Origin: Escherichia coli
GTDB lineage: Bacteria; Pseudomonadota; Gammaproteobacteria; Enterobacterales; Enterobacteriaceae
Direction: 5' to 3' (one strand)
DNA: 64,000 bases
NCBI RefSeq assembly: GCF_024298765.1
Contig: NZ_CP101210.1
Under the pieces are notes generated by a model. The model saw only the letters and a list, made by a program, of their open reading frames with translations, was not told the origin of the DNA and made no database searches. Position 1 is the stretch's first letter. Each line of letters starts with the position of its first letter. This document shows positions 663 through 48,677 of the stretch, piece by piece. The translations under genes were made by a program, and so were the position numbers.

Positions 663-1688
663 ATGCACATTTTATCTGTTTCAAAAAAGGAAGTTGGAAG
701 AGCTGGGGATAGATTAGTTTCTCAGTTTGGTACAGGTGAAAAATATAAAGAGGAAGATGTACAAATTCTTCATGAGTGGAGGATGTTGCATTTATATCCT
801 TTAAGTAAAATACAATTTTATATGGAAAGAGAGGCTATTTCCTTAAACAAAAATGCGTTACTATCCTCTAGAATTAAGAGGATGCCTTCCATTGTTACTA
901 AGCTTTCTAGATTTCCTGATATGAAGTTAAATAAGATGCAGGATCTTGGTGGGTGCCGGGCTATTTTAAATAATCTGGATCAAGTGTATGATTTAGTTAA
1001 TAAAATAAAATCATCTAAATTCTCACATGAACTAGTTAGAATGGATGATTACATGATAGACGTGAAAGATTCTGGTTATAGAAGCTTTCATATGGTCTAT
1101 TCATTCCAAAATAAAAAATTTCCATCTTTAAATGGGTTGCGCATTGAAATGCAAATAAGAACAGCTATTCAACATAGCTGGGCTACAGCAGTTGAAATGG
1201 TTGGTTTGTTTCGAAAGGAATCATTGAAATCTGGTTTTGGTGATGCAAGATGGCTTAGGTTTTTTGAATTGGTATCAGAGCTTTTTTATAAACTTGAGTA
1301 TGAAAAAGAACCATCTGGGAGTTATATAAAAATATCAGAAGAATTAAGTTATTTATCCGTCGAGTTGAATGTTTTCGATATATTAGCTGCTTACAATGCC
1401 GTAGTTAGCCATATTGAGGGTAGCAAAAAATATGATAAAGGACTTTGCATAATTGTTGTTGATACCATAAAGCGGAATATAAATATAAAGAGCTTCGAAA
1501 ATCACAATCATGCGAAGGCGGCAGAAGCTTATGTCGAGTCTGAAAAATACTGCGCGGAAAATAAAGGCTGTGAAGTGGCTATGGTTTCTGTTAGTTCAAT
1601 TAGTGAATTAAAAAATGCATATCCTGCTTACTTTTTAGATACGAAAACTTTTTTAAATTATCTCAGTAGGTATGTTTTTATAAAATAA
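663..1688 (+). CDS. RelA/SpoT-domain nucleotidyltransferase (small alarmone synthetase-like, toxSAS/CapRel-like) with fused C-terminal domain of unknown function
   Basis: 341-aa ORF. Synthetase-fold motifs visible in the translation: RIKRMPSIVTK (RxKxxxSxxxK), DLGGCRAI (DxxGxR), GYRSFHMVY (compare GYQSLH of Rel enzymes), EMQIRTAIQHSWA (E-x-Q-I-R-T...H). About 140 aa of C-terminal extension without a recognised motif. Visibly AT-rich relative to flanks. Confidence 0.7.
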   Translation: MHILSVSKKEVGRAGDRLVSQFGTGEKYKEEDVQILHEWRMLHLYPLSKIQFYMEREAISLNKNALLSSRIKRMPSIVTKLSRFPDMKLNKMQDLGGCRAILNNLDQVYDLVNKIKSSKFSHELVRMDDYMIDVKDSGYRSFHMVYSFQNKKFPSLNGLRIEMQIRTAIQHSWATAVEMVGLFRKESLKSGFGDARWLRFFELVSELFYKLEYEKEPSGSYIKISEELSYLSVELNVFDILAAYNAVVSHIEGSKKYDKGLCIIVVDTIKRNINIKSFENHNHAKAAEAYVESEKYCAENKGCEVAMVSVSSISELKNAYPAYFLDTKTFLNYLSRYVFIK

Positions 1689-5340: not shown

Positions 5341-5883
5341 TGCTTTAAATGGGGCAATAGAGATATTGAATCTCATCCCGGGATAAACATTGGCAGTTGA
5401 AGGTCCACGCGAACCATTTATCCGGCAAAATTCCACGCGTAATCCTGTGGTAATTTCTTCTGCATCTCGAAGATTGAGAGCTGAAACGTGAAGCTGGGCA
5501 TCGATACGCCATCGGATGGGAATATAAGACCTTTGCTGCTTTTGTAGTCAAAGTTTTTGACAATTCCTGTCATTTTAGGGGACAGAAAAACTCCTTAATA
5601 CTGATAACCTGGTGCACCATACACACGTTCCTGGAGAAAACTACTTTTTTGATAGGGTTGAAGGTGGCTGGATGTCTAAAATAAACATTGCTTCATATGT
5701 TCAACTATGAGTTAATGACTGCGTCGGTTTGAAGAACAGACGATATACGAAGTAGTTTACTAAAGCAGTTCTCATTTCAGGTGTTATTCACTTATTCCTT
5801 CTTTGAGTCTCTCCAATTAAGTACGAAGTCGTTTCTGTTATGCAAACCATTTATGCCGAAAGGCTCAAGTTAAGGAATGTAGA

Positions 5884-8984: not shown

Positions 8985-9015
8985 GGTAGACAATATTACA
9001 AACCATATTCACTTT

Positions 9016-9183
9016 AGATGCCCGTGTTGTCATGGTTCCCAGTATAGAACATCATCTTTTGATGTTTCTGACATGAATCCTTTCGGGGCAAAATGTATCT
9101 TTTGTAAATCAATGATGATTACATTTGATAATATTTCACAATACTTAAATGCCAGCCGTCTGTCGTTGGATTTAAAAAAGTGA
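9016..9183 (+). pseudogene. YnfN-like small zinc-ribbon ORF without a canonical start codon
   Basis: Open frame encoding ...RCPCCHGSQYRTSSFDVSDMNPFGAKCIFCKSMMITFDN...; no ATG/GTG/TTG between the upstream TAG (8971) and the first Cys codon; followed by a strong terminator. Confidence 0.3.
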
Positions 9184-9187
9184 AAAT

Positions 9188-9213
9188 GAAGGCTCCTTCG
9201 GGAGCTTTTTTGC
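9188..9213 (+). terminator. intrinsic terminator
   Basis: GAAGGCTCC-TTCG-GGAGCTTTTTT. Confidence 0.6.
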
Positions 9214-9255
9214 TTGGTGTCTATTCGATGGATACTCACATACTACGGTAACATC

Positions 9256-9486
9256 ATGAAAAAAATCATAGTTTTTTTTAACTCTGAACCAGCAGTGGTA
9301 GTGTCAGCGATGACTGGAGTTAACACCATCATGCGTGAATATCCAAATGGCGAAAAAACACACCTTACTGTAATGGCCGCAGGGTTTCCATCTCTGACCG
9401 GAGATCATAAAGTCATTTATGTAGCCGCGGATCGACATGTTACTTCAGAAGAAATTCTGGAAGCAGCAATAAGGCTCTTGAGTTGA
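9256..9486 (+). CDS. hypothetical small protein (76 aa)
   Basis: ORF from ATG 9256 (MKKIIVFF...); no recognised motif. Confidence 0.3.
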   Translation: MKKIIVFFNSEPAVVVSAMTGVNTIMREYPNGEKTHLTVMAAGFPSLTGDHKVIYVAADRHVTSEEILEAAIRLLS

Positions 9487-9654
9487 TTTGATGCTATTGC
9501 ATTGATAATTCAGGAAAATTCTCTTTGTCTGTTTGTGTAAAATTTAGACTATCGTATGTTGATTATTGCGATGTTTCATCTTATCTTTTACACGTTTGCA
9601 CCATATAATCGACTTACTGTGTAACTGGAAAGTCATAACAGACTAAAAGAGGAA

Positions 9655-9831
9655 ATGATGAATATTGAAGACTTAAAAACAAAAGCAGAAGCAGATATTT
9701 CTGAATATATAACAAAAAAAATTATTGAACTTAAGAAAAAGACCGGGAAAGAAGTTACCAGTATTCAGTTTACCGCACGGGAAAAAATGACGGGTCTTGA
9801 AAGCTATGATGTCAAGATTAATTTAATCTGA
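9655..9831 (+). CDS. gnsB: GnsB-like small protein
   Basis: Translation MMNIEDLKTKAEADISEYITKKIIELKKKTGKEVTSIQFTAREKMTGLESYDVKINLI resembles GnsA/GnsB; AAAAGAGG ahead of the ATG. Below the ORF-track length cutoff. Confidence 0.65.
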   Translation: MMNIEDLKTKAEADISEYITKKIIELKKKTGKEVTSIQFTAREKMTGLESYDVKINLI

Positions 9832-9982
9832 TGTATTCAATAATAAAGTTTATCCATAAACCTCGTTTTTACGGGGTTTTGTTATATTTGAATGGTTCCG
9901 AATATCTAAATCACAATTGTTGATGGTTTTTATTAAACCAATGCAGTCCGGCTCAGGAGTGAGAGAAGCCGGACGTTATGGT

Positions 9983-10507
9983 TTAGCGTGGTAAGATCTG
10001 TGTAGTTTTCTGGATGCTTTCAGTAAATAGTAATGAGTTATCAAAGGCATAGTAATATCTTTGGTGTTCCTGGATATTTGTAACCCATCGGAAAACTCCT
10101 GCTTTAGCAAGATTTTCCCTGTATTGTTGAAATGTGATTTCTTTTGATTTCAACTTATTATAGGAGGTCTCTATAAGATGTTTGTTTCTGGAGAATTTAA
10201 CATTTACAACCTTTTTGAGTCCTTTTACTAACACTATGTTGTCGTTTTCTAACACAATGTGAATATTATCTGTGGCTAAATAGTAAATATAAAGTGAGAC
10301 ATTGTGACGTTTTAGCTCAGAATAAAATAATTCACAGTTTAAATCTTTACGCACTTGATCGAATATTTCTTTAAAAATGGCAGCCTGAGCCATTGGTAAA
10401 CCTTCCATGTGATACGATGGCGCGTAGTTTGCGTAACAAAGTTGAGCCTTGCTGGCATCCAGGAGGGATATGCAACCGACAGATGTATGTAAGGTCGATG
10501 TACTCAA
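9983..10507 (-). CDS. ydfO: YdfO-like protein (DUF1398 family, as recalled)
   Basis: ORF at the Qin ydfO position; true start may be an internal Met (near 10408 or 10393). Confidence 0.45.
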
Positions 10508-10593
10508 ACTTTCATACTTTTCCTCTTTTATGCAGAAAGATTTGAAGTAATATTTTAACCGCTAGATGACGAGCAAACGCATGGAGCGACAAA

Positions 10594-10800
10594 ATGAATA
10601 AAGAACAATCTGCTGATGAACTCTCGTTGGATCTGATTCGTGTAAAAAATATGCTTAATAGCACCATTTCTATGAGTTACCCGGATGTTGTAATCGCATG
10701 TATAGAACATCAGGTGTCTCTGGAAGCATTCAGGGCAATTGAGGCAGCGTTGGTGAAGCACGATAAGAATTCGAAGGATTATTCCCTGGTGGTTGACTGA
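10594..10800 (+). CDS. hypothetical small protein (68 aa)
   Basis: Track ORF upstream of the packaging genes; possibly ynfO-like but not recognised with confidence. Confidence 0.3.
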
Positions 10801-11139
10801 GCACCATAACTGCTAATCATTCAAACTATTTAACCTGTGACAGAGTCAATGTCGCATTCTGTCACTGTCAGGCTAATACAGAGCTGCAATTCAACTACTG
10901 CAATGTCCTCGTAATTAGGTGAATTTACATATCGTCCTGTTCGGATGCCGGCTGCATTGCTGAAGATGAGGCATTTATGGTTCGCATATTTTCCCCTCAT
11001 GCTCGTCAGTCCTGTGCGTAGGAAGAAACAGGACACTCACACTAATTTGTGTGGGCATGCTGTGATGTCCTTCTGAATTATTCCTATGCCATTATGTAAA
11101 GCGCTGTATCAGATGCTCGTCACGGCTGTCAGGCTGTCG

Positions 11140-11235
11140 GGTCCTCCCGGTGGGGGCCCCTGCCACGGGGCGGGAGCGTCGCGGAAAAAGGCTAGTTTTT
11201 GAAATTTCATTCGTCATCACCACTACTGTAATAGA
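11140..11235. promoter_or_regulatory. candidate cos site (cosN/cosB-like)
   Basis: ACGGGGCGGGAGCGTCGCGGAAAAAGG...TTTCATTCGTCATCAC closely resembles lambda cos (ACGGGGCGGCGACCTCGCGGGTTTTCGC...TTCGTCATAAC, from memory), just upstream of the terminase small subunit. Confidence 0.45.
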
Positions 11236-11353
11236 TTGATATTACAGTGTTTTTATTTTTGTGGTGTCGATTTTGATTGTTTTTTGTTCATCACTAACAC
11301 CGTTTGCCTAAAGTTGTTCGCAAGATGCATGTTTAAAACATTCTGGAGCGGGT

Positions 11354-11848
11354 ATGGATCGAGAGTTAAAAAATCTGACGCTGAATATCAGTCAACTGGC
11401 GGCACTGTCAGGTGTACATCGCCAGACTGCTGCGGCAAGGCTGCAAAATCTACCCGTTGCAGGGGGGCATGAAAGCAACCTCAAGCTTTATCGGGTGGTT
11501 GATATTGTGTCGGCATTTCTGGCATTACCACCGCCGGTTGCAGAAAGCGAAATGGATGCGCATGAGCGCAAAGCCTGGTATCAGTCTGAACGTGAGCGTC
11601 TTAAGTTCGAACAGGAAACGGCACAACTCATTCCGGCCAGTGATGTCAGACGGGAGTTTGCCATCTGGGCAAAAGCGGTCGTGCAGGTGCTGGAGACATT
11701 ACCGGATATTCTTGAACGTGACTGCGGTCTGCAGCCTGCCGCTGTGAGCCGTGTTCAGTCCATTATTGATGATCTGCGCGATCAGATAGCCCTGCGGGTG
11801 ACTGAAGCAGGTGCGGATGATGAGGAGGAATTACAGCAGGAGGAGTAA
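11354..11848 (+). CDS. nohA: terminase small subunit (Nu1-like DNA-packaging protein)
   Basis: 164 aa with an N-terminal HTH-like segment, immediately upstream of and overlapping (TAATG) the large terminase gene. Confidence 0.6.
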   Translation: MDRELKNLTLNISQLAALSGVHRQTAAARLQNLPVAGGHESNLKLYRVVDIVSAFLALPPPVAESEMDAHERKAWYQSERERLKFEQETAQLIPASDVRREFAIWAKAVVQVLETLPDILERDCGLQPAAVSRVQSIIDDLRDQIALRVTEAGADDEEELQQEE

Positions 11849-13950
11849 TGCTGAATCAGGAAACCGCAAAGGCAGCACGAACCGATTCAGGTTATATCCT
11901 TCGCGCACCGAGACGAATGCGGGTTGCTGATGCCGTTGCTCAGTATATGCGGGTGCCCCTGGGGGCAGGGAACTCAGTCCCGTGGGATCCGCTGGTGGCA
12001 CCGTATGTTATTGAGCCGATGAACTGCCTGGCCTCGCGTGAATACGACGCAGTGATATTTGTTGGCCCGGCACGAACCGGCAAGACTATCGGCCTGATTG
12101 ACGGCTGGGTGATTTACAACGTGATTTGCGATCCTGCTGATATGCTGATCATTCAGATGACGGAGGAAAAAGCCCGCGAACACTCCAAAAAACGACTCGC
12201 CAGAACGTTTCGCGTCAGCCCGGAAGTGGTCAGTCGCCTGAGTCCGAACAAAAATGACAACAACGTTTATGACAGAACATTCCTTGCTGGTAACTACCTG
12301 AAAATCGGCTGGCCGTCAGTCAATATCATGTCCTCATCAGATTATAAATGCGTCGCGCTGACGGATTATGACCGTTTTCCGGAAGATATTGATGGCGAGG
12401 GGGATGCTTTCTCTCTTGCCTCAAAACGTACCACAACATTTATGTCCAGTGGTATGACGCTGGTGGAGAGTTCCCCCGGCAGGGATGTGAAGGATGTGAA
12501 ATGGCGACGGACTTCACCGCATGAGGCTCCACCAACCACGGGGATACTGTCGCTCTATAACCGTGGTGATCGCCGTCGCTGGTACTGGCCCTGTCCATAC
12601 TGTGGTGAGTATTTTCAGCCCTGCGGCGATGTGGTTGCTGGTTTCCGTGATATTGCCGATCCCGTGCTGGCAAGTGAGGCGGCTTATATTCAGTGTCCTT
12701 CCTGTTCAGGACGGATTATGCCTGAACAAAAACGTGAGCTGAACGGACGTGGGGTCTGGTTGCGGGATGGTGAATCCATCAATGCGGATGGCAGTCGTTA
12801 TGGTGATCCCCGACGCTCACGTATTGCGTCATTCTGGATGGAGGGGCCGGCAGCTGCTTACCAGACACTCTCGCAACTCGTTTACAAACTGCTTACTGCA
12901 GAACAGGAATACGAGACAACCGGAAGTGAAGAAACACTCAAGACGGTTATCAATACCGACTGGGGATTACCTTATCTTCCCCGCGCCAGCATGGAGCAAC
13001 GAAAAAGTGAACTGCTTGAGCAGCGGGCAGAGCCAGTTCCTTCCCGCAGTGTGCCGGATGGCGTTAATTTCCTTGTGGCGACAGTGGATGTGCAGGCGGG
13101 ACGTCATCGCCGTTTTGTGGTTCAGGTAACGGGCTATGGCAGCCGTGGCGAACGCTGGATTATTGATCGTTACAACATCACGCAGTCATTGCGCGGTGAC
13201 AGCGACGGGGAGAGCCAGCGAATTGATCCGGCCAGCTATCCGGAAGACTGGGATGTCCTGCTGACGGATGTTTTTCATAAAAGCTGGCCGCTGGCCTCCG
13301 ATCCTTCTCAACAAATGCGACTGATGGCAATGGCGGTGGACTCCGGCGGTGAAGACGGGGTCACTGATAATGCCTATAAATTCTGGCGTCGTTGCCGTCG
13401 TGATGGCCTTGGTAAACGTATTTACCTGTTTAAGGGCGACAGCATCCGGCGCGCAAAACTGATCACCCGTACATTCCCTGATAACACCGGACGAACGGGC
13501 CGACGGGCGCAGGCCGCAGGTGATGTGCCGCTCTGGCTTCTTCAGACGGATGCACTGAAAGACCGGGTGAATAACGCGTTATGGCGTGACTCGCCAGGTC
13601 CCGGCTATGTGCATTTCCCTGACTGGCTGGGGAGCTGGTTTTACGACGAACTGACGTATGAAGAGCGGAGCAGTGACGGGAAATGGAGTAAGCCAGGTCG
13701 CGGTGCCAACGAAGCTTTTGACCTGATGGTGTATGCCGAGGCTCTGGTCATTCTGCATGGATACGAAAAGATCCGCTGGCCGGATGCACCGGAGTGGGCG
13801 AGCCGGGAAACCTGGCTGGAGTGTGTCCCGGACAGTACCGAACCGTCACCCACACCGGAACCGGTATCCACGCCTGTTAAAAAACAAAAACGGAAGAAAA
13901 CAGTAACTGACGATGTTAACCCCTGGCTGACTTCCGGAGGATGGTTATGA
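11848..13950 (+). CDS. terminase large subunit (lambda gpA-like)
   Basis: 700 aa; Walker A-like VGPARTGKT; position between Nu1-like and gpW/portal genes. Confidence 0.8.
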   Translation: MLNQETAKAARTDSGYILRAPRRMRVADAVAQYMRVPLGAGNSVPWDPLVAPYVIEPMNCLASREYDAVIFVGPARTGKTIGLIDGWVIYNVICDPADMLIIQMTEEKAREHSKKRLARTFRVSPEVVSRLSPNKNDNNVYDRTFLAGNYLKIGWPSVNIMSSSDYKCVALTDYDRFPEDIDGEGDAFSLASKRTTTFMSSGMTLVESSPGRDVKDVKWRRTSPHEAPPTTGILSLYNRGDRRRWYWPCPYCGEYFQPCGDVVAGFRDIADPVLASEAAYIQCPSCSGRIMPEQKRELNGRGVWLRDGESINADGSRYGDPRRSRIASFWMEGPAAAYQTLSQLVYKLLTAEQEYETTGSEETLKTVINTDWGLPYLPRASMEQRKSELLEQRAEPVPSRSVPDGVNFLVATVDVQAGRHRRFVVQVTGYGSRGERWIIDRYNITQSLRGDSDGESQRIDPASYPEDWDVLLTDVFHKSWPLASDPSQQMRLMAMAVDSGGEDGVTDNAYKFWRRCRRDGLGKRIYLFKGDSIRRAKLITRTFPDNTGRTGRRAQAAGDVPLWLLQTDALKDRVNNALWRDSPGPGYVHFPDWLGSWFYDELTYEERSSDGKWSKPGRGANEAFDLMVYAEALVILHGYEKIRWPDAPEWASRETWLECVPDSTEPSPTPEPVSTPVKKQKRKKTVTDDVNPWLTSGGWL

Positions 13951-14159
13951 ATCAGAATGATATTGAAGCCATGATTCAGCGTTATACGGAAGCTGAAATG
14001 GCGGTGCTGGACGGAAAATCCGTCACTTTTAATGGTCAGCAGATGACCATGGAAAACTTATCTGAGATCCGGCAGGGGCGGCAGGAGTGGGAGCGCCGCC
14101 TTGCGGCTCTGATTACACGACGACGGGGGCATCCCGGGTACCGGCTGGCGAGGTTCTGA
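13947..14159 (+). CDS. head-tail joining protein gpW-like
   Basis: About 70 aa between terminase and portal; GGAGG upstream. Confidence 0.55.
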   Translation: MNQNDIEAMIQRYTEAEMAVLDGKSVTFNGQQMTMENLSEIRQGRQEWERRLAALITRRRGHPGYRLARF

Positions 14160-15667
14160 TGGCAATTCTTGATGATGTGATTGGCGTTTTTTCACCAGGA
14201 TGGAAAGCGGCAAGGCTGCGTTCCCGAGCGGTGATCCAGGCTTATGAGGCCGTAAAAACGACGCGGACACACAAAGCCCGACGGGAGAACCGAACTGCCG
14301 ACCAGTTAAGCCAGTACGGGGCCGTGTCGTTACGTGAGCAGGCCCGTTACCTTGATAACAACCACGATCTGGTCATTGGTGTATTTGACAAGCTGGAAGA
14401 ACGGGTGGTGGGGAAAAACGGGATTATTGTCGAGCCACATCCGGTATTACGCAATGGTGCCATTGCCCGTGACTTGGCAGCGGAGATACGTACCCGATGG
14501 AGTGAATGGTCTGTCAGTCCGGAAGTCACCGGGCAGTTTACCCGTCCGATGCTGGAACGTCTGATGCTGCGTACCTGGCTGCGCGATGGTGAGGTGTTTG
14601 CCCAGATGGTTTCCGGGCGCATAAACAGCCTGACGCCTTCTGCCGGTGTTCATTTCTGGCTGGAGGCGCTCGAGCCGGACTTTATTCCCATGACCAGTGA
14701 TGAGAGCAACAGGCTGAATCAGGGCGTGTTTGTTGATGACTGGGGGCGTCCCGAAAAATATCTGGTGTATAAAAGTCGTCCTGTATCCGGACGGCAGATG
14801 GAAACCAAAGAAGTGGATGCAGAGCGAATGCTGCATCTTAAATTTGTTCGCCGTCTGCACCAGATGCGCGGGACGTCTTTATTGTCCGGTGTGCTGATCC
14901 GCCTCAGCGCCCTGAAAGAGTATGAAGATTCTGAGCTGACTGCAGCAAGGATCGCCGCTGCTCTGGGGATGTACATCCGGAAAGGCGACGGACAGAGCTA
15001 TGAAACGGATGGTAATGACAGCAAGGAGAATGAACGCGAGCTTACCATTCAGCCAGGCATTATTTACGACGATCTGAAACCCGGCGAAGAAATCGGAATG
15101 GTGAAGTCGGATCGTCCCAATCCTAACCTTGAAACTTTTCGTAATGGTCAGTTGCGTGCCGTGGCGGCGGGCAGTCGTCTGAGTTTTTCCAGTACGGCAC
15201 GCAACTATAACGGCACTTACAGCGCCCAGCGTCAGGAACTGGTTGAGTCTACTGATGGCTACCTGATCCTGCAGGACTGGTTTATTGGTGCCGTCACCCG
15301 CCCGATGTATCGTGCATGGCTGAAACAGGCTGTGGCATCCGGTGTTATCAGGCTACCCCGCGATCTTGACCGTTCTTCACTGTATACCGCGGTGTATTCC
15401 GGACCAGTGATGCCGTGGATTGACCCTGTTAAGGAGGCTGAGGCCTGGAAAATCCAGATTCGTGGTGGAGCGGCGACAGAATCAGACTGGGTACGTGCTG
15501 GTGGTCGTAATCCGGATGATGTCAAACGTCGGCGCAAGGCCGAAATTGATGAAAACCGCAAGCTGGATCTGGTATTTGATACCGATCCGGCCAGTGATAA
15601 AGGAGGCAGCAGTGCCGCAACGAAACGACAGGAGCCGCAGCACACCGACGACCAGTCCGAAGAATAA
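14159..15667 (+). CDS. portal protein (lambda gpB-like)
   Basis: About 502 aa from the ATG that overlaps the gpW stop; position and size as lambda B. Confidence 0.7.
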   Translation: MAILDDVIGVFSPGWKAARLRSRAVIQAYEAVKTTRTHKARRENRTADQLSQYGAVSLREQARYLDNNHDLVIGVFDKLEERVVGKNGIIVEPHPVLRNGAIARDLAAEIRTRWSEWSVSPEVTGQFTRPMLERLMLRTWLRDGEVFAQMVSGRINSLTPSAGVHFWLEALEPDFIPMTSDESNRLNQGVFVDDWGRPEKYLVYKSRPVSGRQMETKEVDAERMLHLKFVRRLHQMRGTSLLSGVLIRLSALKEYEDSELTAARIAAALGMYIRKGDGQSYETDGNDSKENERELTIQPGIIYDDLKPGEEIGMVKSDRPNPNLETFRNGQLRAVAAGSRLSFSSTARNYNGTYSAQRQELVESTDGYLILQDWFIGAVTRPMYRAWLKQAVASGVIRLPRDLDRSSLYTAVYSGPVMPWIDPVKEAEAWKIQIRGGAATESDWVRAGGRNPDDVKRRRKAEIDENRKLDLVFDTDPASDKGGSSAATKRQEPQHTDDQSEE

Positions 15668-15680
15668 TTCCTGGTTCAGG

Positions 15681-17639
15681 ATGCAGGCTGGTCACCAGAG
15701 TGACGCGGATATTTATATTTATGACGAGATTGGTTTCTGGGGTGTTACAGCGAAGCAGTTTATCAGTGATCTGAATGCACTGGGCGATATCACCCACATT
15801 AATCTCCATATTAATTCACCGGGTGGCGATGTCTTTGAAGGCATCGCCATTTTTAATGCGCTGAAAACACATGGAGCGTCCATTACCGTTTATGTCGACG
15901 GTGTGGCGGCGTCAATGGCGTCGGTCATTGCGATGGTGGGAAACCCGGTCATTATGCCGGAAAACACTTTCATGATGATTCATAAACCATTTGGCTTTAC
16001 GGGCGGTGATGCGGAGGACATGCGCACCTATGCCGACCTGCTCGATAAAGTTGAGGCGGTTCTGTTACCCGCTTATGCACAGAAAACCGGGAAAACCACC
16101 GATGAAATTGCTGCCATGCTGGCGGATGAGACCTGGATGTCCGGTGCCGAATGTCTGGCACATGGATTTGCTGATCAGGTAACGCCAGCCGTTAAGGCAA
16201 TGGCATGTATTCAGTCAAAACGTACAGAGGAATTTAAAAAGATGCCGGAATCCATTCGAAACATGATTACTCCGCCACGCAACAGTGCTCCACGCGTACA
16301 GGATGATGAACCTGCAGCCTCCCGGACGCCAGTGCAGGCAGCAGCACCCGTGGTGGATGAAAACAGTATCCGTGCGCAGGTACTGGCAGAGCAAAAAGCG
16401 CGTGTAAACGGTATTAATGATCTGTTTGCCATGTTTGGCGGGCGTTATCAGACGCTGCAGGCTCAGTGTCTTGCCGATCCTGAATGTTCGCTGGAGCAGG
16501 CCCGCGAAAAGCTGTTGAACGAGATGGGGCGCGAGTCCACGCCATCCAATAAAAATACCCCGGCTCATATTTATGCCGGTAACGGTAATTTTGTGGGGGA
16601 CGGGATCCGCCAGGCGCTGATGGCGCGTGCCGGATTTGAAAAAACCGAACGTGATAATGTCTACAACGGGATGACCCTGCGTGAATATGCCCGTATGTCA
16701 CTGACTGAACGGGGTATTGGGGTTTCCAGTTATAACCCGATGCAGATGGTCGGTGCGGCGTTCACACACAGTACGTCTGACTTCGGTAATATTCTGCTGG
16801 ATGTTGCGAACAAAGCCATTCTGCAGGGCTGGGAAGATGCTCCTGAAACCTATGAACAGTGGACGCGGAAAGGTCAGTTGTCTGATTTTAAAATTGCCCA
16901 TCGTGTGGGTATGGGGGGCTTCAGTGCTCTGCGTCAGGTGCGTGAAGGGGCGGAATATAAATACGTCACCACCGGAGATAAACAGGCCACTATTGCACTG
17001 GCGACCTATGGCGAGCTGTTCAGTATCACCCGTCAGGCCATTATCAATGATGATCTGAATATGCTGACCGATGTCCCGATGAAGCTGGGCCGTGCGGCGA
17101 AATCCACCATTGCCGATCTGGTTTATGCCATTCTGACGTCTAACCCGAAAATCTCCACAGATAATGTAAGTCTGTTCGATAAAGCGAAACATGCAAACGT
17201 ACTGGAGAGCGCTGCAATGGACGTGGCATCGCTGGATAAAGCCCGCCAGTTGATGCGCGTTCAGAAAGAGGGGGAGCGTCATCTGAATATTCGTCCTGCG
17301 TTCGTACTGGTACCGACGGCGATGGAGTCTGTTGCTAACCAGGTCATTCGCTCCTCAAGTGTCAAGGGGGCTGACATTAACGCCGGTATTATTAACCCGG
17401 TGAAAGATTTTGCGACCGTTATTGCAGAGCCTCGTCTTGATGATAACAGCCAGACCACCTTCTACCTGGCTGCGTCCAAAGGCTCCGATACGATTGAAGT
17501 GGCTTATCTCAACGGTGTGGATACGCCATATATTGATCAGATGGAGGGCTTCAGTGTGGATGGCGTGACAACGAAAGTGCGTATTGACGCCGGTGTCGCG
17601 CCAGTTGATCACCGCGGTCTGGTGAAATGTACGGCGTAA
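15681..17639 (+). CDS. fused prohead protease (ClpP/S14-like), scaffold-like linker and major capsid protein
   Basis: About 652 aa; N-terminal region has ClpP-like motifs (INSPGGDV..., catalytic-Ser context GVAASMASVIA); C-terminal ~350 aa reads as a major capsid protein. Confidence 0.6.
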   Translation: MQAGHQSDADIYIYDEIGFWGVTAKQFISDLNALGDITHINLHINSPGGDVFEGIAIFNALKTHGASITVYVDGVAASMASVIAMVGNPVIMPENTFMMIHKPFGFTGGDAEDMRTYADLLDKVEAVLLPAYAQKTGKTTDEIAAMLADETWMSGAECLAHGFADQVTPAVKAMACIQSKRTEEFKKMPESIRNMITPPRNSAPRVQDDEPAASRTPVQAAAPVVDENSIRAQVLAEQKARVNGINDLFAMFGGRYQTLQAQCLADPECSLEQAREKLLNEMGRESTPSNKNTPAHIYAGNGNFVGDGIRQALMARAGFEKTERDNVYNGMTLREYARMSLTERGIGVSSYNPMQMVGAAFTHSTSDFGNILLDVANKAILQGWEDAPETYEQWTRKGQLSDFKIAHRVGMGGFSALRQVREGAEYKYVTTGDKQATIALATYGELFSITRQAIINDDLNMLTDVPMKLGRAAKSTIADLVYAILTSNPKISTDNVSLFDKAKHANVLESAAMDVASLDKARQLMRVQKEGERHLNIRPAFVLVPTAMESVANQVIRSSSVKGADINAGIINPVKDFATVIAEPRLDDNSQTTFYLAASKGSDTIEVAYLNGVDTPYIDQMEGFSVDGVTTKVRIDAGVAPVDHRGLVKCTA

Positions 17640-48242: not shown

Positions 48243-48677
48243 TTACGGCAGGACTTTCTTAAGCAAATGCTCAAGTGTTGCCACTTCGTCCGCCGTCAGG
48301 TTTTTTGTTAATTCTTGATGCAGGTCCTGGCCAACTAATTGATGGCATTGTTCACATATTGCCGCGCCGCTGGTGGTAAGTTTTACCAGTACGCCGCGCT
48401 TGTCATTCGGGTTCGGCAACCTTTCCACCCAGCCTTTACAGACCAGGCGATCCAGCATACGGGTCAGCGCCCCCAGGTCGACCGACAATACCTTTTTCAG
48501 TTCAACCGGAGTAATACACGCCGCGCAGCGGATAGAGCAGAGCACCTTAAACTGTGCCGCGGTAATATCCAGCGGAGACAGATACTCGTTAAGCAGGCGA
48601 TCTTTCTTCTGATTAACCATATGGATTAAGCGACCTAATGGAATAATTTCATTGAACAGATCGCTGGTACTTTTCAC
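48243..48677 (-). CDS. marR: transcriptional repressor MarR (GTG start)
   Basis: 144 aa; winged-helix repressor; start codon is GTG on the minus strand. Confidence 0.9.

Follow-up and report, generated by a model that had tools for sequence, protein, structure and literature searches.

The segment from 11139 to about 11294 of the window, as the whole 64-kb stretch of Escherichia coli DNA analysed here is called, is in all likelihood (roughly 85%) a genuine cos site, belonging to a lambdoid prophage of full length at the Qin locus and working by a mechanism for which phage lambda provides the analogy. The exact nick positions, which were placed by that analogy, are predicted with somewhat less confidence than the site itself. 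It is a cos of an already known kind and not a new one, as the same site is found in deposited phage genomes, some of which start there. The sole new element, and a mildly new one, is a family-wide description of the DUF1441-type cosB and of its exchange against a fixed cosQ-cosN-I2 block.

By analogy with lambda, dimers of the small terminase subunit TerS would bind the R3-, R2- and R1-like boxes of cosB, while IHF would bend the DNA between R3 and R2 and so join the two. The large subunit TerL would thereby be positioned at cosN and introduce staggered nicks 12 bp apart, predicted at 11167/11168 on the top strand and at 11179/11180 on the bottom strand, leaving 12-nt 5' ends GGGCGGGAGCGT. 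Packaging would then proceed rightwards into the head, until the next cos, through its cosQ, cosN and I2-like segment, gives the termination signal. The features concerned and the genes that follow them are listed in Table 1.

Table 1. Features of the predicted cos site and the adjoining genes (positions in the window; slashes within sequences mark predicted nicks).
Feature	Position	Strand	Evidence or remark
cosQ-equivalent GGGTCCT	11139-11145	+	7/7 vs lambda 48473-48479; packaging-termination signal in lambda
cosN-equivalent, predicted nicking site CCACG/GGGCGGGAGCGT/CGCGG	11163-11184	+	16/20 vs lambda
Predicted 12-nt 5' cohesive end GGGCGGGAGCGT	11168-11179	+	overhang inferred from sequence and phage record starts
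I2-like segment CGCGGAAAAAGGCTAGTTTTTG, cosN-cosB spacer	11180-11201	+	unchanged between the cosB types A, B and C with the same cosN
R3-like box TCGTCATCACCAC, putative TerS site	11211-11223	+	contains TTCGTCATCAC; >=90% conserved in 58 relatives
IHF-site consensus (I1-equivalent) TATCAATCTATTA	11229-11241	-	matches WATCAANNNNTTR
Inverted R2-like box, minus-strand sequence TCGACAC	11264-11270	-	motif scan and conservation
R1-like box TCATCAC, conserved TTTTTTGT just before	11288-11294	+	nearly invariant in 58 relatives
Small terminase TerS, 164 aa, DUF1441 / PHROG 141	11354-11848	+	Pfam PF07278, E=2.7e-41
Large terminase TerL, 700 aa, gpA family	11848-13950	+	GpA_ATPase and GpA_nuclease
gpW-like head-tail adaptor	13947-14159	+	PHROG 118 'head-tail adaptor', E=1.4e-37; PGAP CDS
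Portal protein, lambda family	14159-15667	+	PF05136, E=5.6e-82; PGAP 'phage portal protein'

Core of the site and ends of related phage genomes

A lambda-like cos at 11140-11235 had been proposed by a sequence-only reading of this DNA from two strings, ACGGGGCGGGAGCGTCGCGG and TTCGTCATCAC, separated by an A/T-rich tract. Both strings are present, at 11165-11184 and 11210-11220 respectively, each occurring once when both strands of the 64 kb were searched, and the A/T-rich tract AAAAAGGCTAGTTTTTGAAATTTCA lies between them. The whole functional site, running from cosQ to about 11294, is wider than had been proposed. The lambda cos junction was rebuilt from the ends of NC_001416 and compared with the window in fixed register. 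In this alignment ACGGGGCGGGAGCGTCGCGG and lambda ACGGGGCGGCGACCTCGCGG are identical at 16 of 20 positions, in register, which bears out the proposed cosN upstream of the terminase genes; the fully matching cosQ had escaped mention. The lambda bases aligned with it are those that we take to be the 7-bp cosQ of that phage. The predicted cohesive end GGGCGGGAGCGT is identical to lambda GGGCGGCGACCT at bp 1-6, the only mismatches being at bp 7, 8, 9 and 11, and the CG dinucleotides beside both predicted nicks are kept (CCACG/GGGCGG...AGCGT/CGCGG). From cosQ to the predicted top-strand nick the distance is 29 bp in the window and 30 bp in lambda, and the cos lies 186 bp upstream of TerS-TerL-gpW-portal, the same position that it occupies in lambda about 190 bp upstream of TerS-TerL-W-portal. 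The I2-like segment is partly alignable to lambda CGCGGGTTTTCGCTATTTATG.

Among lambda-like phages, the cohesive end commonly varies at bp 7-12 (at 9 and 12 in N15; at 8, 9 and 11 in Gifsy-1), its left half and the CG dinucleotides next to the two nicks are conserved, cosQ with its 7 bp is highly conserved, and lambda requires I2 for the termination of packaging (Feiss et al., 2015; PMC4669245). The window shows the corresponding cohesive-end sequence, CG dinucleotides beside the predicted nicks, cosQ and position upstream of the terminase genes. Since its cohesive-end differences are confined to bp 7-12 while the CG dinucleotides and cosQ are kept, it follows the pattern of natural variation described by Feiss et al. 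(PMC4669245). The cohesive end GGGCGGCAGCGT of Gifsy-1, whose cos was read from its record as GGGTCCT...TTACG/GGGCGGCAGCGT/CGCAGG, is identical to that of the window at 11 of 12 positions, bp 7 being the sole difference, and the cosQ GGGTCCT is present there. Unlike the window, this Salmonella phage carries a cosB resembling that of lambda, and its Nu1/gpA/head genes are of the lambda/21 type; the view that it has a DUF1441 terminase was rejected, as its record shows Nu1/21-type genes.

Records deposited by other workers end at the same place. When window positions 10900-11900 were compared with a phage collection by megablast, the linear record of Tritos (OV696610) was found to end at the base equivalent to 11167 and that of cdtI (NC_009514/AB285204) to start at the base equivalent to 11168. 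Both records open with GGGCGGGAGCGTCGCGGAAAAAGGCTAGTTTTT, which is window 11168-11200. Genome ends have been set exactly where the lambda analogy predicts, even if the start coordinates may have been chosen by homology and not measured. Three further phages, mEp460 (Mexico), phi458 (host recorded as MC1061) and vB_EcoS-569R4, have the same cosQ-cosN-cosB, and so the same cos type, with 93-97% identity across the site and terminase genes 95-99% identical to those of the window at the DNA level; mEp460 is plaque-forming. Their cosN is invariant except for bp 12 of the cohesive end, which is G in mEp460. Left of cosQ their sequence is unlike that of the window, forming a mosaic junction, and no cos annotation was found in the inspected stretches of the three records. 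The first base of the mEp460_4F5 record (LR595868) lies 5 nt to the left of the predicted nick, and 3 nt are absent from within its cohesive end (GGGCGGGAGCGCGG); this record was rejected as a determination of the end and read as an assembly artefact at physical genome ends.

A more sensitive search recovered a conserved block from about 11138, at cosQ, through cosN to about 11200 in many more phages, including Stx phages, VT1-Sakai, mEp213/mEp043, Fels-1 and a Klebsiella phage. In addition, 58 distinct close relatives were retrieved through the TerS protein, so that the footprint is unbiased by the cosN string, and their upstream regions were compared. They are mosaic left of 11139, and conservation starts at the first base of cosQ. 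In a separate alignment of 12 cos regions, registered on the cohesive end, cosQ is kept in 11. The exact cosN string occurs in more than 120 IMG/VR contigs, none of which breaks at cos; all include 70 bp or more of sequence to its left, and the majority are prophages predicted in isolate genomes. Contigs that start shortly upstream of TerS (L159, L193) were rejected as evidence of ends, their starts not lying at cos.

These data bear on the idea that the site is a chance match to lambda cos in a G+C-rich intergenic patch, the phage having pac/headful packaging or another end type. By our own binomial estimate a single 16/20 match is expected about 0.05 times in 128 kb of both strands, and the match of TTCGTCATCAC is at chance level. 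The composite lambda-derived pattern GGGTCCT-N18-26-CGGGGCGG-N6-CGCGG, however, has a single match in the window, where 100 dinucleotide-preserving shuffles give an expectation of 0.00, and the location, the conservation in more than 100 contigs, the ends of phage records and the gpA-family TerL are all concordant. Chance resemblance is effectively excluded.

Several smaller observations concern the same stretch. A short direct repeat GCTGTCAGGCTGTC at 11124-11138 abuts cosQ on its left, within the mosaic region outside the conserved block, and Tritos has one copy more. Hypothetical CDSs have been annotated across cosQ, cosN and cosB in phage records (L007, 692-817 (-); L008, 722-964 (+)), and the window has an equivalent 43-aa ORF at 11092-11223 (-); such annotations are probably spurious gene calls on a DNA signal. 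A literal literature search for the cohesive-end string returned only unrelated papers and none in a phage context.

Layout of cosB

In numerous lambda-like phages cosB is complex, being composed of R3, the IHF site I1, R2 in inverted orientation, and R1 (Feiss et al., 2015; PMC4669245), and the putative elements of the window stand in a matching order. Counted from the cohesive end, the candidate boxes lie at +44 (+), +97 (-) and +121 (+), with the IHF consensus at +62 to +74. The consensus WATCAANNNNTTR is matched once on both strands of the 64-kb window, namely between the R3-like and R2-like boxes, and an A/T tract at 11248-11260 lies on its 5' side on the same strand. The boxes, of the form TCRNCAY, are unrelated to the CGTTTCC... 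of lambda, and the arrangement is more compact, with R1 at about +121 as against about +155 in lambda.

The 12-region alignment shows which elements recur in the DUF1441 group: an element rich in CATCA between about +41 and +57, the TTGAT core around +70, an inverted box near +97 and a direct box near +121 after a conserved T-run. In most DUF1441-type members of the alignment the ATCAA/TTGAT core stays at the same place; it is degenerate in Fels-1, VT1-Sakai and Stx2_14040. Among 11 cos regions of the DUF1441 type, the motif TC[AG][ATC]CA[CT] was found on the plus strand at +41 to +51 in 9, on the minus strand at +96 to +99 likewise in 9, and again on the plus strand at +119 to +123 in 10. Altogether it has 44 matches against 3.8 expected from shuffles, a figure that is inflated and overstates the support, because the motif was picked post hoc after inspection of the same, related sequences. 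The fixed positions and the +/-/+ orientation, kept despite diverging spacers, are the more telling pointer, common ancestry contributing to this positional agreement. Among the relatives the R2-like GTGTCGA is kept while adjacent bases vary. In Tritos and cdtI the motif scan found TC[AG][ATC]CA[CT] to be wholly absent from cosB. On sequence grounds the cosB of the window would have a lambda-style layout with another specificity, in which TerS and IHF are the predicted ligands.

The sequence-only reading had offered TTCGTCATCAC as a resemblance to lambda cosB. In 41% of shuffles the two cosB regions share a 10/11 match at some position, and TTCGTCATCAC stands at +43 in the window against +67 in lambda, 24 bp out of register; homology to lambda cosB was rejected on both counts. 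The string coincides instead with the R3-like box of the DUF1441-type cosB. Separately, the exact 11-mer TGTTTTTATTT is shared by window 11248-11258 and lambda +82 to +92 (the I1 region), at nearly equal distance from the cohesive end. A match of 11/11 anywhere arises in about 2% of shuffles, and the sharing may reflect residual IHF/A-tract homology or an effect of A/T-richness.

The elements right of cosN could also be read as transcriptional control of the head operon and not as TerS and IHF sites, a reading that we consider very improbable. The region does lie upstream of the first head gene and holds a perfect 9-bp inverted repeat (11225-11233/11240-11248). Against this, promoter-like sites are at chance level and no terminator was found in the region, the inverted-repeat arms vary among relatives without compensation while the IHF consensus positions are kept, and the three-box geometry mirrors lambda cosB. 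In the 58 relatives the variable columns of the IHF site, 11233-11234, are N positions of the consensus. The repeat was rejected as a functional palindrome, there being no compensatory change among relatives, and an Rfam search of the cos region matched no family.

Terminase genes and a proposed joint exchange of cosB and TerS

TerS had been called Nu1-like in the sequence-only reading, which holds as far as a full-length gene and remote profile homology are concerned and not at the level of the family. Its only Pfam match is DUF1441, with no assignment to Phage_Nu1, and BLASTP against Nu1 gave no significant match (E=0.27). Among the PHROGs the top match is 141 ('terminase small subunit', E=1.2e-73), followed by phrog_57, the family of lambda Nu1, at 4.4e-10; conversely, lambda Nu1 belongs to phrog_57 with a secondary match to phrog_141 at 5.6e-8. 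These reciprocal cross-hits indicate that TerS is a homologue of Nu1, and on such profile comparisons a remote one only. The AlphaFold model of TerS, built on a 12-sequence alignment (pLDDT 73.8), has a strand-helix-helix-strand-helix N-terminus. As to a Nu1-style winged helix-turn-helix DNA-binding domain at that end, Foldseek against the PDB lists 6hn7_B (prob 0.93) and 7lw0_A (0.91), both Nu1-family DNA-binding domains, in the top five at a non-significant E of 0.2, and a sequence search of TerS against PDB chains gave no match.

The description of TerL as gpA-like and intact stands. Both domains are matched end to end, the GpA ATPase (PF05876, 1.3e-70, profile 2-247/247) and the GpA nuclease (PF20454, 1.1e-85, profile 1-294/294). 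Identity to lambda gpA is only 24% over 623 aligned columns (E=3e-18), and the DUF1441 type of TerS is a further difference from lambda. After the portal gene, a ClpP-like prohead protease/major capsid fusion of about 675 aa is annotated at 15612-17639 (+) (PGAP CDS in NZ_CP070071), which differs from the separate C, Nu3, D and E genes of lambda.

Comparison of cos regions with their terminases points to modular exchange. In more than 120 IMG/VR contigs at least three cosB types follow one cosQ-cosN-I2 block, and the change from one type to another falls just right of about +33. In cdtI and Tritos, which have a DUF1441-family TerS and a gpA-family TerL as in the window, cosQ, cosN, the cohesive end and the I2-like segment are identical to the window through +33; beyond about that point cosB is wholly divergent, the CATCAC boxes being replaced by CATGGCGGCGGCAGCATG, and the identity of TerS is only 42%. 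Their packaging specificity presumably differs from that of the window. In the PhiR47_1-type TerS the C-terminal half is identical to that of the window whereas the N-terminal half is divergent, as is its cosB. Such joint divergence of cosB and the N-terminal half of TerS is expected if the N-terminal domain reads cosB, the two forming a specificity pair. The putative exchanged pairs are of at least three types, the window/mEp460 type, the PhiR47_1 type and the cdtI/Tritos type.

In our judgement it is about an even bet that the DUF1441-type TerS proteins make up a set of lambda-style specificities, in which a near-invariant cosQ-cosN-I2 and a gpA-family TerL are combined with at least three swapped pairs of cosB and TerS N-terminus, the window type being defined by TC(A/G)NCA(C/T) boxes in the order R3, IHF, inverted R2 and R1. 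If this is true, these phages would offer a natural, sequence-resolved series for the evolution of cosB-TerS specificity with the cutting and termination signals held fixed. A fixed cosQ-cosN-I2 with a swappable cosB and TerS N-terminus would be a modest extension of the specificity picture drawn from lambda, 21 and N15. A non-exhaustive search found no paper that characterises DUF1441-type packaging specificities or a modular exchange of cosB.

The Stx-phage relatives 1720a-02, VT1-Sakai and Stx2_14040 have 1-2 bp fewer than the window between GGGCGG and CGCGGAAAAAGG (e.g. GGGCGGGCGGCGCGG). Judging from these sequences, they may have shorter cohesive ends or a shifted right nick.

The prophage at the Qin locus

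Several E. coli chromosomes from poultry and humans share the 5 kb of the window from 9000 to 14000 at 100% identity, FDAARGOS_1287 and APEC E956 being examples of such carriers, and at least 80% of this stretch around cos is present in 574 of 5426 complete genomes. In one of the chromosomes, NZ_CP070071, the PGAP annotation places a prophage of about 43 kb beside rspB, that is, at the Qin locus. Its order is integrase, excisionase, DicA/DicC-like regulators, Q-like antiterminator, lysis genes and cspI/ynfN/gnsB, then cos, terminase, portal, ClpP-like protease/capsid fusion, tail genes and a Pin-like recombinase. The integrase, excisionase, lysis, head and tail genes are all annotated full length, and the immunity region is DicA/DicC-like, as in Qin. 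The sole pseudogene flagged in the prophage is cspF, frameshifted and incomplete (window about 5380-5590 (-); NZ_CP070071).

K-12 Qin occupies the same locus beside rspB and has the same flanking late genes cspI, ynfN, gnsB and DUF1398/ydfO. Between ynfO and nohA it keeps GGGTCCTTTCCGGTGATCCGACAGGTTACGGGGCGGCGACCTCGCGGG, in which cosQ and cosN are lambda-identical and cosB is near-identical. There nohA, a Nu1 homologue, is followed directly by tail-fibre genes, without a large terminase or head genes, whereas the packaging module of the window is complete and different from that of K-12 Qin. The contrast with cryptic Qin that had been drawn for the packaging signals holds for the large terminase and head genes, which Qin lacks, but not for cosN and cosQ, which it keeps in lambda-identical form.

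As K-12 Qin shows, a prophage that is dead can still retain a perfect cos. The site of the window might likewise be a relic, a true cos by descent that is never cut, in a prophage that is non-inducible or unable to replicate or assemble, and kept through recent acquisition or through recombination with active phages. The Qin locus, the Qin-like regulatory and lysis genes and the frameshifted cspF would fit such an origin. We nevertheless regard it as unlikely, given that the annotation shows every head, tail, lysis, integrase and excisionase gene at full length, that each of the two terminase domains spans its profile from end to end, that near-identical cos and terminase modules are found in phage isolates, and that relatives selectively keep the consensus positions while varying at N positions. 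It is plausible that the prophage, which looks complete by its annotation, is active or can be mobilised and is not a remnant of the K-12 kind.

A prophage at this locus that is common in avian-pathogenic and human E. coli has a complete lambda-type signal beside complete terminase genes. The cos coordinates provide natural ends for orienting phage genomes of this kind and for predicting their termini, and a cos of the window type is a possible target for cos-dependent mobilisation by related phages. In the early region of the prophage, positions 663-1688 (+) encode a 341-aa RelA/SpoT-domain protein that matches the PADLOC candidate family PDC-S33 (E=5e-119) and may represent a prophage-borne anti-phage or toxin module.
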